In this document: one piece after another, positions 7,529-25,597 of the stretch
How positions within the stretch are numbered: position 1 is the stretch's first letter
Layout: every line of letters starts with the position of its first letter
Notes under the pieces: model-generated
Databases searched by the model: none
What the model was told of the DNA's origin: nothing
What the model saw: only the letters and a program-made list of their open reading frames with translations
Assembly (NCBI GenBank): GCA_036170915.1
Contig: JAVHQC010000015.1
Span: 179,898 to 206,350 of the forward strand
Direction: 5' to 3'
Source of the DNA: Cyanobacteria bacterium auto_48_18
GTDB lineage: Bacteria > Cyanobacteriota > Vampirovibrionia > Obscuribacterales > Obscuribacteraceae
Length of the DNA stretch: 26,453 nucleotides
Program-made: the position numbers and the translations under genes

Positions 7529-8452
7529 ATGTACGAAACAAAAACAACCAGCCAATCAAACAATCAGCGAAAATATAGTGCAGTGAAAACCAAACTGGTG
7601 ATCACCGATGTAGACGGCACGCTGGCCTCTTTCTGGGACTATTTCGTGCCTGCTATGCGCGATTTTCTCAGAGATCTGAGCAGCAGCAGCAACAAGCCTG
7701 TGCATGAACTGGCTCAAGATATTGGTCATATCATCGAAAGACGGGGCAGTCATGAATACCCATGGCTGTTGGAAGAAACTAGTTTTGCCTGGTCTTATTT
7801 CGAAAAAGATCCTGCGACTTTTACCAGAGACTATGTAAAACCATTCTGGGAAGCCCTCGACCACAACCGCTCGAAATATCTCCATGCTTATCCGCGAGTG
7901 CTTGACACTTTGGCTGAGCTGAAAAGTCGCGGTGTAAAAATCGTGGCTCTTAGTGACGCACCAGAGTACATGGCGAGAGTGCGTAACCAACAAGTATTTG
8001 ATGGTTTGCTCGATGCCGTTTATTCCCTTGAGACCGTTGAGCCTGACAAAGACGATATCTTCCATCCGATATCGCTTGCTCATGGCCGTGAGCGCGTCAA
8101 ACAGCTGCGCCAATCAACTGCAAATTTGAAAACAGCTTTGCACATTTTGCCTCAGTCTTATGAAAAACCATGTGCCGCTGGTCTTGATCGAATTCTTCAA
8201 GATTTTGAAGTATTCCCTCAAGAGTGTCTTTTCGTCGGCGATAGTCTGGCAAAAGATGGCATGGTGGCGGCCTCACGTGGCATTCCATTTATCTGGGCTC
8301 ACTATGGCACCAGCTTGCCTGCTGAGTACGAAGAAATGGTCAATCGCTCCCTCAAACCGCCAATTCAAGATCGTTTTCAACGTACACTGCCGCAAGAACT
8401 TATCACCGCCGTGGCAGCACGGTACGATGAAATTTTGCACTTTGTGGTTTAA
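7529..8452 (+). CDS. HAD-superfamily hydrolase (phosphatase-like)
   Basis: Motif I ITDVDGTL, motif II ALSD, motif III EKP, motif IV FVGDSLAKD; GGGAGA RBS upstream of the ATG. Confidence 0.9.
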   Translation: MYETKTTSQSNNQRKYSAVKTKLVITDVDGTLASFWDYFVPAMRDFLRDLSSSSNKPVHELAQDIGHIIERRGSHEYPWLLEETSFAWSYFEKDPATFTRDYVKPFWEALDHNRSKYLHAYPRVLDTLAELKSRGVKIVALSDAPEYMARVRNQQVFDGLLDAVYSLETVEPDKDDIFHPISLAHGRERVKQLRQSTANLKTALHILPQSYEKPCAAGLDRILQDFEVFPQECLFVGDSLAKDGMVAASRGIPFIWAHYGTSLPAEYEEMVNRSLKPPIQDRFQRTLPQELITAVAARYDEILHFVV

Positions 8453-8472
8453 GTCTCGCGCAAACCAATAAC

Positions 8473-9999
8473 TTAAGTACTGGTTTCGGCCTTCGCTTTT
8501 TCCATTATCTTCTCGAGATCGACCCTCAGCTCAGGCTGGCTTTTGCTTTCCTCTTGCAGGATTTGCATCACCAGCTTGTGCTGTTCGGCGTTGGAGGTCA
8601 GCGACCAGACGGCTGCTGCACCTATGGAAATTTTATTGATGTTGCCTGACAATTTTTTTGACCAGGATACGGTGGAGATGATTTTTCTGACGTAGCGTTT
8701 ATCGCCGGTGGCAAAAAAACAACCCCAGAGCATATCAAGATCGCTGGGTGCCGAAATAAAGAAAGTATCCAATTTGTCAGCTGCCAGATTGGCGTGAGTA
8801 ATAGTGCGATCTCTGGCTGGAATATTTTTTTCCACCATCTCCGCTTCGGCCAGGGCCTCAGGTGTGCGAGTCAAGCGCAAAGCTAGAGGAAGCAACGCGC
8901 TTTTGTGGTCGGTCGTAAGATCATTGATATCTTCCAGCCATTTTTTCATGCGATCTGGGTGTTGCACAAACAGACGACTCAAAAATGAGGCACTGGGGGC
9001 GATGGCGCTTTCTTTATCCAGTGCTCCTTCTTTCTCTAACAGATGCACGCCGGCCGGCACTAGATCAGGGGTGGGGAAGAGGTAGTAGTAAGTCATCCAC
9101 TGCCATAGGTCTTTACCGTTATTAAGAGCCGTAAGGGCCGCCTTGGGTTCACTGAGCGGTTCTTCACTGCCCTTGGTGCCCATGGTATTAAACTCTTTTT
9201 TAGAGGCACCGGCAGCAAACAGGCTATCTGATAAGGCGCTTTCTTCATTGCCACTGCCATCGTTTTCGGTGGTGGTGACACGACTTTGTTTGTCAGAGGC
9301 AGTGCTCAAATCTGTAGTCGCCGCTTCTGAATAAGCGATGTTATCTGGCTTGATAAATTTGTCGGCAGAAAAAGGCAGGGTTTTGTATGACAAATATTCT
9401 AAAGTACGCTTGCCTCTCGGGCTTGTAATCAGCATTTTGAGCGGCACAGAATTAGAATTGACGAGCAGCTCCAGTTGAATTGGACCCCCATCAAATTTAT
9501 ATGACGTAGTTTTGCCACCACTGATGGTGGGGCCATCAGCGCCGACAATATTTCGGCTTTTAAAAAATTGCAGTTCGCGACCGAATTCCAGATCAATAAA
9601 GGGCTGCTGGCGCGTGGCCAATATAGGCATGTGCACAGTGGAGACCTTCGCTTGATCGAGAAGGTGTTTACCGGTTTTGTCCGCTAAATTGATAATCCAG
9701 ACGTCAGGGCAAGAGATGACAATTAGACCGTGTAATCCTAATTTGCTGTCGAGCGCTTCTTCGATGCGGCCGTAAATTTCACCGGCCCGATAACAGTAAC
9801 GCGGTTGGCCTGCAAACGACTCAGGATCGATATCATCAGCCACATAGCGCAGCTTAATTTCCTGCATTTCTTTTAGATCTGATTTGCTTGCATCGGCAGC
9901 CCAGGCCGGCACCACCCAGGTGATGATACTAATCACCGCACCAGTCAGGGCGCTAAATTTAATTGCTGATTTGCCGCGGTTCCGCATGGTTGCCTTCAT
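8473..9999 (-). CDS. Secreted two-domain hypothetical protein
   Basis: Long ORF with a signal peptide (AVISIITWVVPAWA-A), a beta-rich N-domain, a Ser/Thr/Glu linker and a helical C-domain (DLDMLWGCFFATGDKRYVRKII). Start is uncertain (ATG 9999 or 9987). Confidence 0.75.
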   Translation of the reverse strand: MKATMRNRGKSAIKFSALTGAVISIITWVVPAWAADASKSDLKEMQEIKLRYVADDIDPESFAGQPRYCYRAGEIYGRIEEALDSKLGLHGLIVISCPDVWIINLADKTGKHLLDQAKVSTVHMPILATRQQPFIDLEFGRELQFFKSRNIVGADGPTISGGKTTSYKFDGGPIQLELLVNSNSVPLKMLITSPRGKRTLEYLSYKTLPFSADKFIKPDNIAYSEAATTDLSTASDKQSRVTTTENDGSGNEESALSDSLFAAGASKKEFNTMGTKGSEEPLSEPKAALTALNNGKDLWQWMTYYYLFPTPDLVPAGVHLLEKEGALDKESAIAPSASFLSRLFVQHPDRMKKWLEDINDLTTDHKSALLPLALRLTRTPEALAEAEMVEKNIPARDRTITHANLAADKLDTFFISAPSDLDMLWGCFFATGDKRYVRKIISTVSWSKKLSGNINKISIGAAAVWSLTSNAEQHKLVMQILQEESKSQPELRVDLEKIMEKAKAETST

Positions 10000-10014
10000 A
10001 GTTGCTACGTTCAA

Positions 10015-10047
10015 AGTATATTCGATTTGGAATTAAAGGGGTATAAT
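10015..10047. promoter_or_regulatory. Candidate back-to-back divergent -10 elements
   Basis: TATACT on the minus strand (10015-10020) and TATAAT on the plus strand (10042-10047) lie in the short divergent intergenic gap; no convincing -35 boxes. Confidence 0.35.
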
Positions 10048-11000
10048 TGGTCGCCCTTTTGCAGGTTCTTATCCTGGACGTTTTAATAACAGTTGACAAT
10101 CTCTGCAAGAGCTATCGCAACGGCACGATCAAGGCTGTTGACGGCGCCTCTTTCACTGTCAGCCAGGGCGAAATTTTTGGTTTAATTGGGCCCAATGGTG
10201 CCGGCAAGACTACAATTCTTGGCTGCCTGCTGGCCTTGATTCAACCCACCTCTGGCAAAGTGTTGATCGATGGTAGATCGCCCTATGACCTGGCTGTTAA
10301 ACCGTTAATTGGCTTTCTGCCTGAGCGGCCCTGTTACAACCGCTGGATGACCATTGAACAATTTCTGAAATATCAGCACCGCCTTGCCAAGCGACCGGAA
10401 GGAGAACTTTCGCAAGCGATTAAAGAAGTTCTTGCCCTGGTTGAACTTGATGTCGATCCGAAAAAGCGGCGCATTCGCGAATTATCTCGAGGTATGTTGC
10501 AACGCATTGGTTTGGCTCAGGCGCTAATTGGCAAACCACAGGTATGTTTCTTAGATGAGCCCACGTCGGGCATGGACCCGCTGGGCTTTGTCTTGATTCG
10601 CAAGCTCCTACTGAAATGCAAAGCCGAAGGCATAACCGTGGTGCTCAATTCGCACCACTTGCAAGAAGTGGAAAAAGTTTGCGACCGCATTGCTTTTATT
10701 CGCCGCGGAAAAATAGAATCTGTTCAAAGTGTTGAATCACTGGCACAGCTAAGTCAGGTGCTGGTTGTTGAATGGCAATCATCCACAGTTGAAGTAGATG
10801 GTGCCACACTAGAGAAAATAGCCCGGCAAGCAGGTTCTAATTTAATAGATATAAACGGCAACTCGGCTCGTTTTGCTGCCCCTGATAAAGATGTGGCAGC
10901 CGATTTAATTGTTGCCCTCACCAGCAGTGGTGTCAAAGTTTATCAGGCCACTTTTGAGAAACGGGAGTTGGTTGAAATGTTTTATGAGGGCATGAATTGA
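10047..11000 (+). CDS. ABC transporter ATP-binding protein (ABC-2/CcmA-like exporter)
   Basis: Walker A GPNGAGKTT, signature LSRGMLQR, Walker B CFLDEPTSGMD, H-loop NSHHL. Start codon uncertain (TTG 10047, TTG 10059 or CTG 10074). Confidence 0.95.
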   Translation: MVALLQVLILDVLITVDNLCKSYRNGTIKAVDGASFTVSQGEIFGLIGPNGAGKTTILGCLLALIQPTSGKVLIDGRSPYDLAVKPLIGFLPERPCYNRWMTIEQFLKYQHRLAKRPEGELSQAIKEVLALVELDVDPKKRRIRELSRGMLQRIGLAQALIGKPQVCFLDEPTSGMDPLGFVLIRKLLLKCKAEGITVVLNSHHLQEVEKVCDRIAFIRRGKIESVQSVESLAQLSQVLVVEWQSSTVEVDGATLEKIARQAGSNLIDINGNSARFAAPDKDVAADLIVALTSSGVKVYQATFEKRELVEMFYEGMN

Positions 11001-11776
11001 ATAAAGCAATTTTCGATTTTACTCTGCACGAAAAATTTTCTAATTGGAAATTGCAGCTGCCGTTGCTTGGTTTTGTCATTATGCCTGCTTATATGCTCTT
11101 TTTAGCAGTGCAGAGCACGCCGGAGAGAATCGCTGCTAGTGCTAGCGTTTGGCAATATTTTCAAAGTTCTGCGGTTTATTTGTTTTACAGCTATTTATTT
11201 GTCAGTGATGGTTTTGTCAGCTCAAGACCCACAGGCGACTCCACAGCTATGACACTGCTGTTCACCCGACCGATTACCCGATTTGAGTATGTAATGACAA
11301 AGTTTTTGGCAGCTTCGCTGGGAGTAATTGCGCTTCTATTGCCCGCGGCCTTGCTTACACATGTGGTCAGCTGTTTCCTCGGCCTGCCGCCTGCGTTCAA
11401 CGTCAGCGTGGCGGCCTCAATAGTACTCAATAGCATGCTCGCTTCGGCATTTGTTGTTTTTCTCCACTGTTTACCTGGCGTCCTGGGCGTTTTCACCTTT
11501 CTTTTGCTGGCTGGTTGTGCCGGTGTCGGCGACATGTTTGCCTCTCCGACATCGAGCGACATACCTGAAATAATGAAACACTTTGCTCAAATTATGCGTA
11601 ACATCAATTTCTGGGTCGGCGATTTTTTCTGTCCCTTTTTAAACGTGAGCGAGCTAAGCACCGGTGTTACTTTTGATTACACCGCCATTGTCGTTTATTT
11701 GTCGAATATAACATCGTATCTTTTTCTTGGCACTTATGTACTTGTGCATCGAGAATTTTTCTATGCCAATGAATAA
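10997..11776 (+). CDS. ABC-2 type exporter permease
   Basis: About 6 hydrophobic segments and the ABC-2 permease motif LLFTRPITRFEYVMTKFLA; the TTG start overlaps the ATPase stop. Confidence 0.88.
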   Translation: MNKAIFDFTLHEKFSNWKLQLPLLGFVIMPAYMLFLAVQSTPERIAASASVWQYFQSSAVYLFYSYLFVSDGFVSSRPTGDSTAMTLLFTRPITRFEYVMTKFLAASLGVIALLLPAALLTHVVSCFLGLPPAFNVSVAASIVLNSMLASAFVVFLHCLPGVLGVFTFLLLAGCAGVGDMFASPTSSDIPEIMKHFAQIMRNINFWVGDFFCPFLNVSELSTGVTFDYTAIVVYLSNITSYLFLGTYVLVHREFFYANE

Positions 11777-12731
11777 AGTGCCAGCGTCATCTACGCTTTA
11801 TATTCCTCTCTGGTTCGCCATTTTTGCTGCCATATTATTTGTGGCGCGAGTGGCTGTTAAAGTGGCAGACGAACAAATTAGCGCACAAGCACAGGCCGCT
11901 TTGCACTGGCACGATGCCAGCGCAATATCAGATGTGAAAGCCGCCGCCGGTAAGTTGTTATTGATCGATTTCACCGCCGACTGGTGTGGTCCCTGTAAAG
12001 AAATGGCTAGGACAACTTTCGTAAATCGAAAGGTTATTGAGCACATCAAAAGTGACTATGTGCCTATACGTGTTTATGCTCCCAGCCATGAGCAAACTAC
12101 ACCGCAGGCAGGTCTTGTGCGAGAACTGCAAGAGAAATATAACGCTACTTACATACCGTGTTTTGTCATTGCTTTCCCTGGTGGTGAGTATATTTGTCGA
12201 GCATCTGGGTACCGCGACAGTCGTGAATTTTTATCGGTTTTAGATGAAGGTCTGCTTGCTGCTCAATTTGCCAGAGCAATGCACGCCGTCTATATTTTCG
12301 ATTATGCCAGAGCAGCAACTTTTCTCGATAACGATGTATTGAGCGGTAAAAAAACTACAGGCACCAATCAGACTTTGGTTTATTTCCACATACTGTCATC
12401 ACTAGGCCGCGAGGTTGAGGGCAAGGCTTTAGTGCAAAGAAAACTGGGTGAAGACGAGCGAACGAACAAAAAAATTATTAGCGACCACTGGCCAAGGGCC
12501 CTTTGCAAATATCTACTGGGAGAGTTAAGCGAAGCACAGGCACTCGCTGCCACAACTCGCGATAATCAAAAAAGCCAGATGCATTTTGCCTTTGCTCTCA
12601 GTCGCTTAAGGAATAATGACCGTCCCGGCGCCATTCGTGAACTTAATAAAGTGATGGTTCTGCAGGAGACTTACCTCGATTGTTATCGCTCGAGCGGGGT
12701 TTGGCTAACTCAATTTGAAAAAGGCAAATAA
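11769..12731 (+). CDS. Membrane-anchored thioredoxin-fold protein (WCGPC) with a C-terminal TPR/NlpI-like helical domain
   Basis: N-terminal TM (LWFAIFAAILFVARVAV); LLLIDFTADWCGPCKEM; cis-Pro loop YIPCF; helical tail WPRALCKYLLGELSEAQAL...MHFAFAL. ATG 11769 (or 11763) overlaps the permease stop. Confidence 0.85.
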   Translation: MNKVPASSTLYIPLWFAIFAAILFVARVAVKVADEQISAQAQAALHWHDASAISDVKAAAGKLLLIDFTADWCGPCKEMARTTFVNRKVIEHIKSDYVPIRVYAPSHEQTTPQAGLVRELQEKYNATYIPCFVIAFPGGEYICRASGYRDSREFLSVLDEGLLAAQFARAMHAVYIFDYARAATFLDNDVLSGKKTTGTNQTLVYFHILSSLGREVEGKALVQRKLGEDERTNKKIISDHWPRALCKYLLGELSEAQALAATTRDNQKSQMHFAFALSRLRNNDRPGAIRELNKVMVLQETYLDCYRSSGVWLTQFEKGK

Positions 12732-12732
12732 A

Positions 12733-12762
12733 TTGCATGGCGCTTACAATGGCGCTTACAAT
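12733..12762 (+). promoter_or_regulatory. Candidate sigma70 promoter containing a 12-bp tandem direct repeat upstream of the peptide gene
   Basis: TTGCAT (12733-12738), 18-nt spacer, TACAAT (12757-12762). ATGGCGCTTACA occurs twice (12737-12748, 12749-12760). GGAGG RBS at 12777-12781. Confidence 0.45.
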
Positions 12763-12785
12763 AGAAGTATCGATTTGGAGGACTC

Positions 12786-13091
12786 ATGAAATTACCAGTT
12801 TCAACCCAAGATAAGTTGCGCGCCGCTTTAGGTTTAACCCTTCTGTGTGGCATGTGTATGCCGATCGAAGAAGTGCAGGCTAAAGCTAAAGAGACTGGCA
12901 AAGCCAATCAGTCGAAAGAAAGTGCGAAAAAAAGTGGCAGCAACCAAGAAGTTAAGCCTGACGGTGCAAAATCTGAAACCAAACCGTCTAAAGATCCTGT
13001 AGCCGATCCCGAACCGTCCGCTAAAGCTCCGCCTTCCGCTAAAGCTCCAGGATCCGGTAAAGACCCTTGCCCTGCTTGCGGTCGCGGCTAA
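12786..13091 (+). CDS. Putative RiPP precursor peptide, chryseobasin ChrA-like (C-terminal CPACGRG)
   Basis: Strong GGAGG RBS; signal-like N-terminus (LRAALGLTLLCGMCMPIEEVQA); Lys/Ser/Pro-rich low-complexity middle; ends DPCPACGRG-stop, like the CPACGMG terminus of ChrA; 7 nt upstream of a DUF692 gene. Confidence 0.85.
   Translation: MKLPVSTQDKLRAALGLTLLCGMCMPIEEVQAKAKETGKANQSKESAKKSGSNQEVKPDGAKSETKPSKDPVADPEPSAKAPPSAKAPGSGKDPCPACGRG
13014..13049 (+). repeat. 18-bp in-frame tandem duplication (PSAKAP x2) in the precursor
   Basis: ccgtccgctaaagctccg / ccttccgctaaagctcca. Confidence 0.8.
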
Positions 13092-13098
13092 AAAGCTA

Positions 13099-14259
13099 AT
13101 GACCATATTGTGCGGCCTGGCACTGATGCCTACAGCCGATTTTCTAGAGGCCGCATATCCCTTATTTGAATCCTCTCAAGTCGACTTGCTTGAATGGAGC
13201 TTCGACACGATCTGGAACGGCGCTGAGCTGCCTGATTGGGCAACTGACCTGATTAACTTTTACGCTTCGCAAGACAGGTTGCTTGGTCATGGTGTTTTCT
13301 TTTCACTGCTTTCCGGTCAGGCTATGGCTCATGAGCAGTGGCTTAGTAATCTGTCAAAAGAGTGTGGACAGTACAAATATTTGCACATCTCGGAGCACTA
13401 CGGATTTTCTCAAGCCGGGTCTTTTGTGGATAGCACTCAACTGCCCGTGCCTTGCACTGCGTCGACGGTGGCTCTGGGTTTAGCCCGTCTGCAGCTGGTG
13501 GCGCGGGCGGTGCCTGAAGTCAACTTTGGTTTGGAGAATCTGGCTTTTGCTTTTTCGGCGGCAGACGCACTGGCTCAAGGGCCCTTTTTGAAAAAACTAC
13601 TAGTCATGCCAGGTAATTTTTTAGTTCTAGATATTCACAACCTTTATTGTCAGTCCCATAATTTCAAAATTGATTTTGAGCAGTTACTCTTAACTTACCC
13701 GCTAGAGTTGGTAAGAGAAATTCACCTCTCAGGCGGCTCCTGGTCTCAATATGAGAACCTGGCGATTCGCCGTGATACTCACGATGATCAAGTTCCTGAA
13801 GAACTATTTCAACTGCTGGCACTTACACTAAAATTTTGCCCACATGTTGAATCAGTGATTTTAGAGAGGTTAGGCGGCACTATAAATGGTGGCGCTGCCG
13901 CTTCAAATTTTAGAGACGATTTTAGCCGTTTGAAAGCAGTGGTGAATAGTCATGATGTGCCTAATAATGCGCTTAATAACGCACTTAATTATGCATCAAA
14001 TGACCAGGTTAAAGCTGCCGGCCCTCTGCGTAAGATGAGAGGTCTCGAACAAGATCTAAAGCTGGCTTTGTATCAAGAGCGCTTGCTTGATTTGCTCAAT
14101 AGTGAATTGAGTGCCAAGCAAATTATTGATCTCTTACAAGACGACTCGAGTCTCAGTATTTACCGAGAATATATAGGCACTTTTGAACCGCGAATGGTGG
14201 ATGTGGCTAAACAACTGGTGAAGCGCTGGGGGAAGACAGCTGCTCAACTCGAATCTTAA
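13099..14259 (+). CDS. DUF692 multinuclear non-heme iron-dependent oxidative enzyme (MNIO), ChrH-like
   Basis: DUF692 metal-ligand motifs in order: LEWSFD, GHGVFFSL, SEHYGF, GLENLAF, LDIHNLYCQ, EIHLSGGS, RRDTHDD, VILERL. A C-terminal helical extension ends EPRMVDVAKQLVKRW. Confidence 0.92.
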   Translation: MTILCGLALMPTADFLEAAYPLFESSQVDLLEWSFDTIWNGAELPDWATDLINFYASQDRLLGHGVFFSLLSGQAMAHEQWLSNLSKECGQYKYLHISEHYGFSQAGSFVDSTQLPVPCTASTVALGLARLQLVARAVPEVNFGLENLAFAFSAADALAQGPFLKKLLVMPGNFLVLDIHNLYCQSHNFKIDFEQLLLTYPLELVREIHLSGGSWSQYENLAIRRDTHDDQVPEELFQLLALTLKFCPHVESVILERLGGTINGGAAASNFRDDFSRLKAVVNSHDVPNNALNNALNYASNDQVKAAGPLRKMRGLEQDLKLALYQERLLDLLNSELSAKQIIDLLQDDSSLSIYREYIGTFEPRMVDVAKQLVKRWGKTAAQLES

Positions 14260-23331: not shown

Positions 23332-23868
23332 CTAGCGATTTTTGACCCAGGTGATACTGACGGTGGTGCCTTGAGTGGCGGGGTCCAGAGTGCAAGAAAG
23401 TTTGACTGCTTGCGTGTCTTTCGTCGCGTCCAGCATATAGACTTTGCCAAGTTTTCCAAGTTTTTCCATCAATTTTGGTGAAGCTGCCATTGATGACCAA
23501 CCGGCATTGCGCAGTTTCTCTTGATACCACTTGAACACAGCTTCAGGCGCATCTTTTGTAATGATGCCGGCAGTGGCAGTGGGTGAGCCTTTTGTCGTGT
23601 TGATAAAGCTGGTGCGGGTAACATTGCTGTTGTATGCAGGAAGAGGGAAATTAATCGGAATACGTTCGGTGATATTTACACGCTCAGTGCTCATTATGGA
23701 GAGATATTTTGATTTGGCCGCCTGTAAATTTCGTTCTCTGGTAGCAGGGTCTGATTGACCTGGTTGAGTGGGCGGATTTTGTGCAAAAGCCGCATTACTC
23801 GCCAATCCCGCTAGACCTAAAGAGACAGAGGCAGCGGCAGACAACACTAAGAATGCTCTAAAATTCAC
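23332..23868 (-). CDS. Secreted hypothetical protein
   Basis: Likely GTG start at 23868 with GGAG RBS; signal peptide ending AFA; mature part ...PINFPLPAY...VFKWYQEKLRNAGW; co-oriented with the Tad-like genes. Confidence 0.7.
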   Translation of the reverse strand: MNFRAFLVLSAAASVSLGLAGLASNAAFAQNPPTQPGQSDPATRERNLQAAKSKYLSIMSTERVNITERIPINFPLPAYNSNVTRTSFINTTKGSPTATAGIITKDAPEAVFKWYQEKLRNAGWSSMAASPKLMEKLGKLGKVYMLDATKDTQAVKLSCTLDPATQGTTVSITWVKNR

Positions 23869-23902
23869 AATTACTCCATTGATTATGACTAAAGTGATTT
23901 GA

Positions 23903-25597
23903 CTAAAGTGGGTTGCAGACGCCAACTGTGTGTACTTCGCTCCAGCGTTTTACTCTGATTTCGCCCAGGCTGCCGTTATAGCCGGTGCCTGGTTTCCAGT
24001 AAACATCTTTGTCCCATAATACCCAGCTGACATTTACAAGCGGAGTTGGCGAGCAGAATGGGAGTGGAACAGGAGCGTGAGGCAACGGAAAACCGCCAGG
24101 CATATAATCGTCGTCGATGATTTTCTTTTCGGTGCCGTCTGCGTCTTTGCCTGAAATCAGAGGCATCCAGGTAAAGGCTAGAGCATCGGCTGCAATTTTT
24201 GGCAGGCACTCCAGAGTTTCGCCGTCTTTGCTAAACAAATAAAAGTTCTTTTCACCGGCAATCAAAGCCAGCCTGGTTACGGCTGAGCCGAGGCAGGAGT
24301 GCAGTTTTGCCGGTGTAATAACCACACCAGGTTTGCTTATCATTTGATTGGCGCGACTGACCATCTGGTCTTCTACTTTTTTCGTTTCTGAGGTGTGCAG
24401 GTTAGGTAGACTGAAAATTACTTCGTCCAGGGAGCGACCAGCAATATCAAGACCAATCATTTGTGATGGTGGGGTAACGCTGGAGCAAAGCACACCACCC
24501 CCCGGCATCGTTGTGCCAGTCATACCAGTGGGAGAGCTATTAAAATCATAATTTTGAGCGGCACCAAATTCAACTTTGATTGGTGGGATTGGATAGAAAT
24601 ACCAGTGACATTTCGGCTGATCTACTTTAATTTTCAAGAATGAATGTGGTGCTGATAATTTGAACGGTTTACGCGGATTACTAAGCACCCAGGATGTTGC
24701 TTTTTCGCCGGGGGCGCCAGCTTTAAGAGCCTGACCTTCGGCAGAGAAAGCATTAGGTACAGGGTTAGACCATTCAAGCGCTTTAGTGGTGGCTTTTTCA
24801 GCATCAAATTTAGAACTGGCTACGAGAATAGGTTTGTTATCCCATTTGAAAGGCACCTGCCAGATGGTTTTGCCGCCGATTTGAATTGGTACATAGCCCT
24901 TGAGAAAATACTTGTTGCCTACACCGTCGGGCTTCGGCGAGCGGGTGCACTGAGTGCTGGCCCCTGCAGGCAGAGAGTAACCGGGTGGCAAATAGAAATT
25001 ATCACTGGGGCTGCCGGTGAGCTCAATATTGCTCTCAGCTTCCCGGTCCATCAATGATGTCTGCCAGCCTGCTCCTGGAAGCACCTGTGTGCTTGAGCCC
25101 ACGCCGATCATGCGCACCGAGTTTTGTTGCGAAAGTTCGTTGAAGAAACCGTGAAGGTTTGAGGGAGTCTTCAATTTCGCGGCCAGTGAATTACTAATCT
25201 CTTCGGCACCTGAAACAGCCTGGCTGGCGTTGCCGCTGCCTGAGCCGGCTTGCCCGTCAGCACCTGCAGCTTCTGCGTTGATGGCGATCAGCATGGCTTT
25301 CGACCAAACTCGATTGATTCGACCTAAAGTTATCTTATTGTCTCTAAGGGCGTTATTGTCGATAGAATCGCTGGCGCAATCGGCGAAGACGTCGGTGGGC
25401 ATTACCGGTACGCTAATATCTGTCAGTGCCTTTTTACCAACGTTGAGGGCACCAGCATCGGTGGCATTTTTTGTTTCACGCTGGGCTCCCATGTAGAGCA
25501 CGATAAACAGAAAACCAATACCGAGAACCAGAAGCGCCAGGGCAAGCACTGCAGAAAACGCTGTCACCGACCCTCGTTTGTCACGCTTAGTTTTCAT
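23903..25597 (-). CDS. TadG-like pilus-associated protein
   Basis: Basic N-terminus, then RG|SVT and a hydrophobic helix, followed by the QRETKNATDAGAL motif typical of Tad N-terminal domains; GGAGG RBS; downstream of TadE-like genes. Confidence 0.7.
   Translation of the reverse strand: MKTKRDKRGSVTAFSAVLALALLVLGIGFLFIVLYMGAQRETKNATDAGALNVGKKALTDISVPVMPTDVFADCASDSIDNNALRDNKITLGRINRVWSKAMLIAINAEAAGADGQAGSGSGNASQAVSGAEEISNSLAAKLKTPSNLHGFFNELSQQNSVRMIGVGSSTQVLPGAGWQTSLMDREAESNIELTGSPSDNFYLPPGYSLPAGASTQCTRSPKPDGVGNKYFLKGYVPIQIGGKTIWQVPFKWDNKPILVASSKFDAEKATTKALEWSNPVPNAFSAEGQALKAGAPGEKATSWVLSNPRKPFKLSAPHSFLKIKVDQPKCHWYFYPIPPIKVEFGAAQNYDFNSSPTGMTGTTMPGGGVLCSSVTPPSQMIGLDIAGRSLDEVIFSLPNLHTSETKKVEDQMVSRANQMISKPGVVITPAKLHSCLGSAVTRLALIAGEKNFYLFSKDGETLECLPKIAADALAFTWMPLISGKDADGTEKKIIDDDYMPGGFPLPHAPVPLPFCSPTPLVNVSWVLWDKDVYWKPGTGYNGSLGEIRVKRWSEVHTVGVCNPL

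Follow-up and report, generated by a model that had tools for sequence, protein, structure and literature searches.

The window examined here is a 26,453-nucleotide stretch of contig JAVHQC010000015.1 of Cyanobacteria bacterium auto_48_18 (genome G000, 86% complete). It contains a gene for a 101-amino acid (aa) peptide that ends in CPACGRG. The start codon of a gene for an MNIO (DUF692) enzyme lies 7 nt downstream on the same strand. Do these two genes encode a pathway for a RiPP, a peptide made on the ribosome and then modified after translation, and what product can be expected from it? A sequence-only reading had proposed a homolog of the chryseobasin pathway of Chryseobacterium, in which the enzyme ChrH modifies the peptide ChrA. 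The peptide and enzyme genes are adjacent, co-oriented, and conserved, and they very likely form a RiPP cassette of two genes that belongs to the ChrH/DybH subfamily and has DybH-like tail chemistry. What is unusual is that the peptide gene is retained in most close relatives but their enzyme is encoded far off in the genome. The features of the cassette are listed below.

12786..13091, plus strand: precursor peptide gene with an ATG start, 101 aa, ending DPCPACGRG-stop, with ChrA-like architecture
12786..12881, plus strand: predicted Sec/signal peptidase I (SPI) signal peptide, residues 1-32, ending VQA, with a hydrophobic stretch from residue 15
13068..13088, plus strand: core motif CPACGRG, residues 95-101, the predicted site of the macrocycle and hydantoin, which fits CPxCGxG of PMC13056109
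13099..14259, plus strand: MNIO (DUF692) gene, 386 aa, ChrH/DybH subfamily, fused type
13099..13950, plus strand: predicted catalytic TIM barrel, approximately residues 1-284, bearing the nine iron ligands, from the AlphaFold2 model and ligand alignment
14056..14229, plus strand: predicted C-terminal helical bundle, about residues 320-377, the counterpart of MelHc, with four helices in the model after a low-confidence linker

Identity of the Enzyme

The enzyme matches PF05114 (E 4e-29). With the NCBIfam model MNIO_ChrH (NF050165), it scores 318 bits (E 6e-95) over model positions 3-360 of 363, which is below the cut-off of 600. Its scores with other MNIO models are 87 bits for BufB (cut-off 310) and 73 bits for HvfB (cut-off 360). 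Seven loci above the ChrH cut-off (650-711 bits), from 301 genomes sampled around G061, were used as positives. L084, whose enzyme is labelled Chryseobacterium, is a chrA-chrH-chrI locus. Of the His/Glu/Asp columns in the 42-row MNIO alignment, nine are kept in 41 or more rows. The window enzyme has all nine, E32, H64, H100, E146, D178, H209, D226, H228, and E256. Of these, D226 and H228 align with D228 and H230 of ChrH, which belong to a third iron site (PMC13733907). The ORFs, PF05114, and the nine ligands confirm what had been read from the letters, a 101-aa CPACGRG peptide gene 7 nt upstream of a DUF692 enzyme with His/Glu/Asp ligands.

The AlphaFold2 model of the enzyme has a mean pLDDT of 92.5 (39-row alignment), and the solved folds nearest to it are TglH and MbnB. 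No solved structure of ChrH or DybH surfaced in the structure search, where the best sequence matches were the TglH-type 8hci and 3bww. The C-terminal bundle matches the separate 68-aa ORF of a split paralog at 45% over 58 aa. A complex of the enzyme, peptide residues 70-101, and three irons, predicted without alignments, scored 0.29 against a mark of 0.34.

In a tree of the barrel domain (42 rows), the window enzyme and 34 ChrH-type rows form one clade of 35 (100/100), and the 7 other MNIOs fall outside it. Seven of the 34 other rows in this clade exceed the ChrH cut-off. The PF05114 search that had been suggested as a check is positive, and the tree puts the enzyme inside and not outside the ChrH-type clade; together with the 318 bits, this supports the claimed homology to ChrH. 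G006 and G009, of the same genus, share the start that gives 386 aa.

The subfamily is marked by the C-terminal helical bundle, which is about 8 kDa and either fused or separate, and by the CPxCGxG motif (PMC13056109). It has been described from Bacteroidota, Cyanobacteriota, Myxococcota, and Planctomycetota (PMC13056109, PNAS 2026). No further papers on it surfaced in the literature search. Among 400 genomes sampled evenly across the phylum, there was one further ChrH-type genome only. A CxxCGxG precursor adjoins the ChrH-type enzyme in 6/6 loci (L001-L006) and in 12 of 13 further loci, the miss being L313 at a contig edge. The survey of CPACGxG neighborhoods that had been called for agrees with the expectation in this respect; within the genus of the window, the enzyme adjoins the peptide in only three genomes. 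Judged from its sequence, the window enzyme belongs to the ChrH/DybH subfamily, because the barrel with its ligand set, the C-terminal bundle, the position in the tree, and a precursor with terminal CPxCGxG are all present.

The Precursor Peptide

An exact CPxCGxG C-terminus occurs only in this peptide among 114,410 stop-to-stop segments of at least 25 aa in the whole genome. The other near match is a 35-aa segment without Met, in which the motif is 3 residues from the end. Searched in 61 related genomes, the DNA pattern of CPxCGxG-stop hit 21, compared with 4 for the reversed control. Peptide orthologs are present in 14 of 15 genus genomes. They are 81-102 aa long; the N-terminus is conserved, the Lys/Pro-rich middle varies, and D-x-CPACGRG is invariant. 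All seven residues of the motif are invariant in 14/14 orthologs, the Arg included, and each of the seven codons varies silently. The unique exact end, the excess over the reversed control, and the silent codon changes indicate that the CPACGRG end is not there by chance. The invariance in all orthologs also supports the claim that the peptide is the expected substrate of the adjacent enzyme. At metagenome scale, the motif alone is unspecific. In a scan of metagenome contigs for CPAC-G-R/S-G-stop, nearly all of the at least 120 matches listed were chance hits in GC-rich non-coding frames. An MNIO was beside two of them (L222 and L269), and beside none of the 14 listed matches that had an ORF of at least 45 aa and 400 nt of downstream DNA.

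The signal-like N-terminus that had been noted looks like an SPI type. In a pattern reading, [VA][QE]A ends at residue 32 (35 in G002) in 14/14 orthologs, with a hydrophobic core before it. SPI signals have also been predicted for ChrA and MelA1 (PMC13056109). The predicted cleaved peptide would have 69 aa, about 6.9 kDa, and a net charge of about +5, with the motif cysteines as its only two. With the ChrA models NF050124 and NF050125, the window peptide gave no match at E 0.1. The peptide of the control locus L084 matches the ChrA model at 122 bits.

The change of Met to Arg had been taken as a special feature of this core, and this is not supported. The published motif is CPxCGxG (PMC13056109), and CxxCGRG tails recur next to ChrH-type enzymes, in Bacteroidota and in further groups. 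These tails are CEACGRG in L001-L003, CPPCGRG in L005, CPGCGRG in L006, CIACGRG in L019, CPACGRG in L020, and CAECGRG in L308. With Arg at motif position 6, the same chemistry may be expected, because the hydantoin is built on the backbone nitrogen here, with no use of the side chain (PMC10214503). Leu at this position is tolerated in HymA, which ends in CPGCGLG (PMC13056109). The string CPACGRG was not found among the papers that the literature search listed, though figures, logos, and datasets outside that search may hold it. A search of PMC12636315 for CGRG found no occurrence.

Distribution in the Genus

The peptide gene stands beside pgm in 14 of 15 genus genomes. The genome without a peptide match, G001, also has no pgm match; this locus is probably unassembled, since the neighboring gene is missing as well. 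In three genomes (G000, G006, and G009), the enzyme adjoins the peptide and lies between it and a convergent histidine phosphatase gene. In the other 11, the peptide stop is within -4 to +12 nt of the phosphatase stop, so there is no room for an enzyme or a remnant. All 11 have a ChrH-type enzyme elsewhere. In G003, which is a single contig, the sole ChrH-type enzyme (5.48 Mb) and the peptide (4.41 Mb) are 1.07 Mb apart, and near this enzyme there is only a 31-aa remnant ending CLGCGMG. G007 (30 contigs, 94% complete) has one ChrH-type enzyme, on a different contig from the peptide. No CGMG-stop was found in the G007 genome, and its two other CxxCGxG pattern matches are not credible genes. Under the patterns tried, the peptide is the only intact CxxCGxG-ending gene in both G003 and G007.

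It is likely that in the 11 sister genomes the peptide is modified in trans by the unlinked ChrH-type paralog. Modification in trans would be feasible because DybH modifies GFP that carries only the 7-residue motif (PMC12636315, section 10), and given this result no other reading is as simple. The ProS and Pgm trees place G000, G006, and G009 as sister to the other genus genomes, which does not by itself give the direction of change. The window clade as a relocated ortholog of the fused clade or of the split clade is rejected in neither case (p-AU 0.26 and 0.14), so both gain and loss of the window enzyme fit the data.

Secreted or TPR-like proteins with such tails were also seen away from any enzyme found, in G013 (L163), G029 (L039), and G033 (L059). 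The tails in L039, L163, L059, L169, and L068-L071 are CPGCGRG, CTGCGMG, CPACGGG, or CLGCGMG, with the ChrH-type enzyme from 3 kb away to far off.

Expected Chemistry and Function

In the published work, the thioaldehyde is formed first and the macrocycle last, and when the first Cys is missing, glutathione is captured (PMC13733907). By analogy, the cytoplasmic enzyme would bind two to three irons and would recognize only the C-terminal CPACGRG. A partner would not be needed, because the helical bundle is fused to the enzyme. With O2, a four-electron oxidation would convert Cys98 to a thioaldehyde and yield a hydantoin in which the Cys98 carbonyl sits between the backbone N atoms of Gly99 and Arg100. 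Cys95 would then close a thioether macrocycle and leave a free thiol. The net change would be -4 Da, and the product would be mostly unmethylated. Sec export and SPI cleavage after Ala32 would release a 69-aa, Lys/Pro-rich cationic peptide with a modified tail into the periplasm or medium.

The function of the subfamily products has been called unclear, and a resemblance to the lipid II-binding ring B of nisin was pointed out (PMC13056109). As speculation, the modified tail would most likely be a general binding handle on the envelope side, an idea based on the gene being kept at one chromosomal site genus-wide and on secreted TPR-like proteins, unrelated to the peptide, that bear the same tail. 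At the free thiol, metal or thiol-redox chemistry is a possible function, somewhat short of an even chance. Binding of an anionic envelope ligand is more doubtful, and both are speculative. That the precursor stays at one site throughout the genus and the maturase changes place suggests a basic function in the envelope, and this retention bears on what ChrH/DybH-type products do.

A tentative broader picture is that the ChrH-type enzymes of Obscuribacterales may be genome-wide modifiers of protein tails and not maturases bound to a cluster. They would act in trans on a portable CGxG tail, carried by the secreted peptide and by TPR-like proteins, and a sister clade, which the window genome also has, would act on proteins of about 330 aa with long-spaced tails. 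If this is true, the sister-clade enzyme closes rings of 17-20 residues or captures another thiol, and mining of gene neighborhoods would miss the in-trans substrates. One extra ring residue is accepted (PMC12636315), and this is the largest ring reported in the literature searched. If substrates can be unlinked and tails long-spaced, the enzyme would have a wider range of substrates and could give much larger macrocycles. The ChrH-type enzyme is already attractive as a protein tag system of seven residues.

Alternative Explanations

Several points weigh against a dedicated cassette with DybH-like chemistry. The chemistry could differ, as the window enzyme is 36-39% identical to the seven ChrH proteins above the cut-off. 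With the G006 and G009 enzymes, it forms its own long branch (100/100), distinct from the fused clade (8 genus genomes) and the split clade (8 rows), with a weak deeper order. No test of an Arg-bearing substrate was found in the texts of the literature searched. The second ChrH-type enzyme of the window genome could share the work. ChrH-type enzymes are present in 15/15 genus genomes, so that co-occurrence within the genus is not independent evidence. A simple pairing of peptide and enzyme is also disturbed. About 3 kb from the fused enzymes of G005, G010, G011, and G012 lies a 200-aa CLGCGMG protein, and G004 keeps a CLGCGMG gene with no MNIO in the 15 kb around it. G002 and G004 show the split-type enzyme only, with local substrates that carry a different tail. 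Finally, 11 of the 14 genomes with the peptide have no adjacent enzyme, which also fits a role independent of the enzyme. A CxxC can form a disulfide or bind metal, and the peptide might work unmodified as such a secreted peptide, at least in these 11 genomes. This is unlikely, since the whole CPxCGxG-stop is kept and not the CxxC alone, and since each of the 11 genomes carries a ChrH-type enzyme at another place. Among 22 further genomes of the family, genes read as real with the motif end were seen only where a ChrH-type enzyme is present. These were in G029 and G033, with a 19-aa piece in G025; matches in G021, G028, and G036 looked spurious. Cys21 of the peptide, invariant in 14/14 orthologs and within the hydrophobic stretch, raises another possibility, a lipidated DAG-RiPP anchored through this residue, as DybA-type members are lipoproteins (PMC13056109). 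It is the least probable of the alternatives. Cys21 is preceded by Leu or Val in 13/14 orthologs, and a PROSITE-like lipobox pattern fits one of the 14 (G005) and not the window peptide. In addition, the SPI-like [VA][QE]A follows further on in all of them, and ChrA and MelA1 have predicted SPI signals. The lipoprotein reading of the window peptide was rejected on the lipobox test.

The sequence-only reading had expected a thiomethyl group and a ChrI-like partner. An S-methylated, chryseobasin-like product (+10 Da) that needs such a partner, or a chemistry diverted by Arg100, now appears improbable. ChrA does give +10 Da, and ArlA gives a mixture in E. coli (PMC13056109). The branch of the window enzyme is divergent, and an Arg fixed in 14/14 orthologs matters for something. 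Nevertheless, DybA, ChsA, HymA, and MelA1, four of the six characterized pairs, give an unmethylated -4 Da macrocycle-hydantoin (PMC13056109), and methylation by S-adenosylmethionine can be spontaneous, with no enzyme (PMC13733907). DybH and even ChrH work without a partner protein (PMC13056109). The profile of ChrI, PF08592 (DUF1772), had no match in the 86%-complete window genome, and the true chr locus L084 was positive as a control. Diversion by Arg is opposed by the use of its backbone nitrogen and by the tolerated Leu. A different doubt concerns the genes upstream. An ATP-binding cassette (ABC) ATPase, a permease, and a thioredoxin-like protein with a WCGPC site form a three-gene module (window 10047-12731), which is conserved elsewhere in the family at about 28% identity. 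These genes could be the exporter and thiol handler of the pathway, as they are on the same strand, end 54 nt before the peptide, and occur at the locus with the enzyme in 3/3 clade-A genomes (G000, G006, and G009) while being absent there in the two clade-B genomes mapped. This has a low probability. Thioredoxin-like homologs are at other loci in 14 further genomes, and 15/15 other loci have no MNIO or CGxG-ending ORF within 1.5 kb. Such loci include G018 and G022, which showed no ChrH-type enzyme. In G002, G003, and G010, the permease gene is still found together with the thioredoxin-like gene, at another place. The peptide carries a signal peptide of its own, and its -10-like box is conserved. 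The three genes were rejected as pathway genes, being unlinked elsewhere, and are taken as neighbors.

Comparison with Known Systems

The cassette resembles ChrA/ChrH of Chryseobacterium in its short precursor, which looks SPI-type, has a spacer rich in Lys, ends in CPACGxG, and is directly followed by a fused MNIO of 365-390 aa with the same iron ligands (PMC10214503, PMC13056109; NF050124, NF050165). It differs in having Arg for Met, in missing the ChrA models, in the enzyme score (318 vs. 600 bits), in the lack of chrI, and in its phylum. The end is CPACGMG in 7/7 true chr loci. By these sequence features it is not chryseobasin in the strict sense, because the cut-off, the ChrA model, CPACGMG, and chrI all fail to fit.

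DybA/DybH, ChsA/ChsH, and HymA/HymH of Bacteroidota are likewise two-gene clusters with a fused enzyme and no partner (PMC13056109, PMC13733907). The unmethylated macrocycle and hydantoin expected here are those of these systems, in which position 6 also varies. The lipobox-bearing precursors of the DybA type are unlike the window precursor, which looks SPI-type.

MelA1/MelH/MelHc was characterized from a Candidatus Melainabacteria genome (PMC13056109). It shares with the cassette the broad lineage, the subfamily, a substrate predicted to be secreted, and the expected -4 Da product. Compared by description, the mel bundle is a separate protein, and its substrate is a 34-kDa TPR protein ending CPACGMG, whereas the cassette has a fused enzyme and a 101-aa peptide. 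The guess of a Melainabacteria-like lineage was sound, as the enzyme of G033, a genome of the same family, is identical to protein P0045, which is labelled Candidatus Obscuribacterales by its source; the novelty of the lineage was not, given the mel system.

Bufferins and oxazolins (BufB and HvfB), copper-binding MNIO peptides, are similar in that an MNIO acts on Cys of an exported peptide (PMC12452194). This type was rejected, as the scores are below the cut-offs and the tree branch is separate. Neither the EGKCG motif nor a DUF2063 partner was found in the cassette, and no DUF2063 partner is among the neighbors. The cassette is, as far as its sequence indicates, a fused-enzyme, short-peptide, Arg-bearing addition to a family characterized in 2023-2026.

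Second Cluster and Other MNIO Loci

The window genome has a second ChrH-type cluster on the same contig, about 181 kb from the cassette. It consists of a split ChrH-type enzyme, the gene for the 68-aa bundle, and three precursors.

L037:5749-9866 (G000:C15 ~7,750-11,870), minus strand: second cluster, outside the window

The three precursor genes encode secreted proteins of about 330 aa that end in CGMG, and the Cys preceding this end lies 15, 16, and 18 residues further upstream. All 25 ORFs that end in CGMG in the eight split-clade loci examined, two fragments included, have a spacer of 15-18, and CPxC is seen in none. The two CG pairs do not vary among 21 aligned long-spacer proteins. These proteins have weak TPR matches that are below the cut-off. 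The model of such a precursor shows a helical-repeat body with a disordered tail, and residues 317-329 have a pLDDT below 50, which gives no information on the Cys-Cys distance. The long-spaced tails could mean very large macrocycles or the capture of another thiol. The cluster resembles the mel architecture in its split enzyme and bundle gene, but its motif is not the published one (PMC13056109). The mel supplement could contain genes of this kind. Beside the split cluster, there is a partial duplication. An 84-aa ORF (L037:5460-5714) is nearly identical to the C-terminus of a hydrolase (L037:2598-3995).

A third MNIO of the window genome, in L038 (G000:C16 ~136,260-136,840), is outside the ChrH subfamily. 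In the Bacteroidia loci L001-L003, three tandem precursors, CGKCGKG, CEACGRG, and CPPCGMG, precede one fused enzyme. L010 and L028 have precursors with atypical N-termini and an internal hydrophobic stretch (pilin-like by eye in L010), with CLACGMG or CYGCGMG tails, beside ChrH-type enzymes.

Upstream Signals and Neighboring Genes

Two putative signals precede the peptide gene.

12777..12781, plus strand: Shine-Dalgarno GGAGG, 4 nt before the peptide ATG, read from the sequence
12757..12762, plus strand: TACAAT box, a possible -10 element for the peptide gene

The GGAGG has a good sequence and a short spacing, and a purine-rich GAGG-like site is upstream of the peptide gene in 14/14 orthologs. 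A TACAAT or TAGAAT box is at the matching position in all 14 ortholog upstream regions. The conserved TACAAT box was not among the calls of a consensus promoter scan, and a search for RNA runs listed none. Just upstream of the ribosome-binding site is an exact 12-nt tandem repeat (12737-12760). Its second copy holds the TACAAT, and the box is thus duplicated. The repeat was found only in the window genome and not in the other 13 ortholog upstream regions.

The cassette was rejected as a horizontally acquired island, as its GC content (0.46-0.50) is like that of its neighbors and the genome (0.48). The next gene downstream of the MNIO is the convergent histidine phosphatase, which lies on the opposite strand and shares 53 nt with the 3' end of the MNIO gene (14207-14259). 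This phosphatase is about 14 residues longer in the window than in genomes without the enzyme at the locus. ORFs of 513, 197, and 564 aa without a Pfam match are also present (window 8473-10014 and 23332-25597). The 513-aa gene is syntenic in 4/4 of the genus loci mapped.

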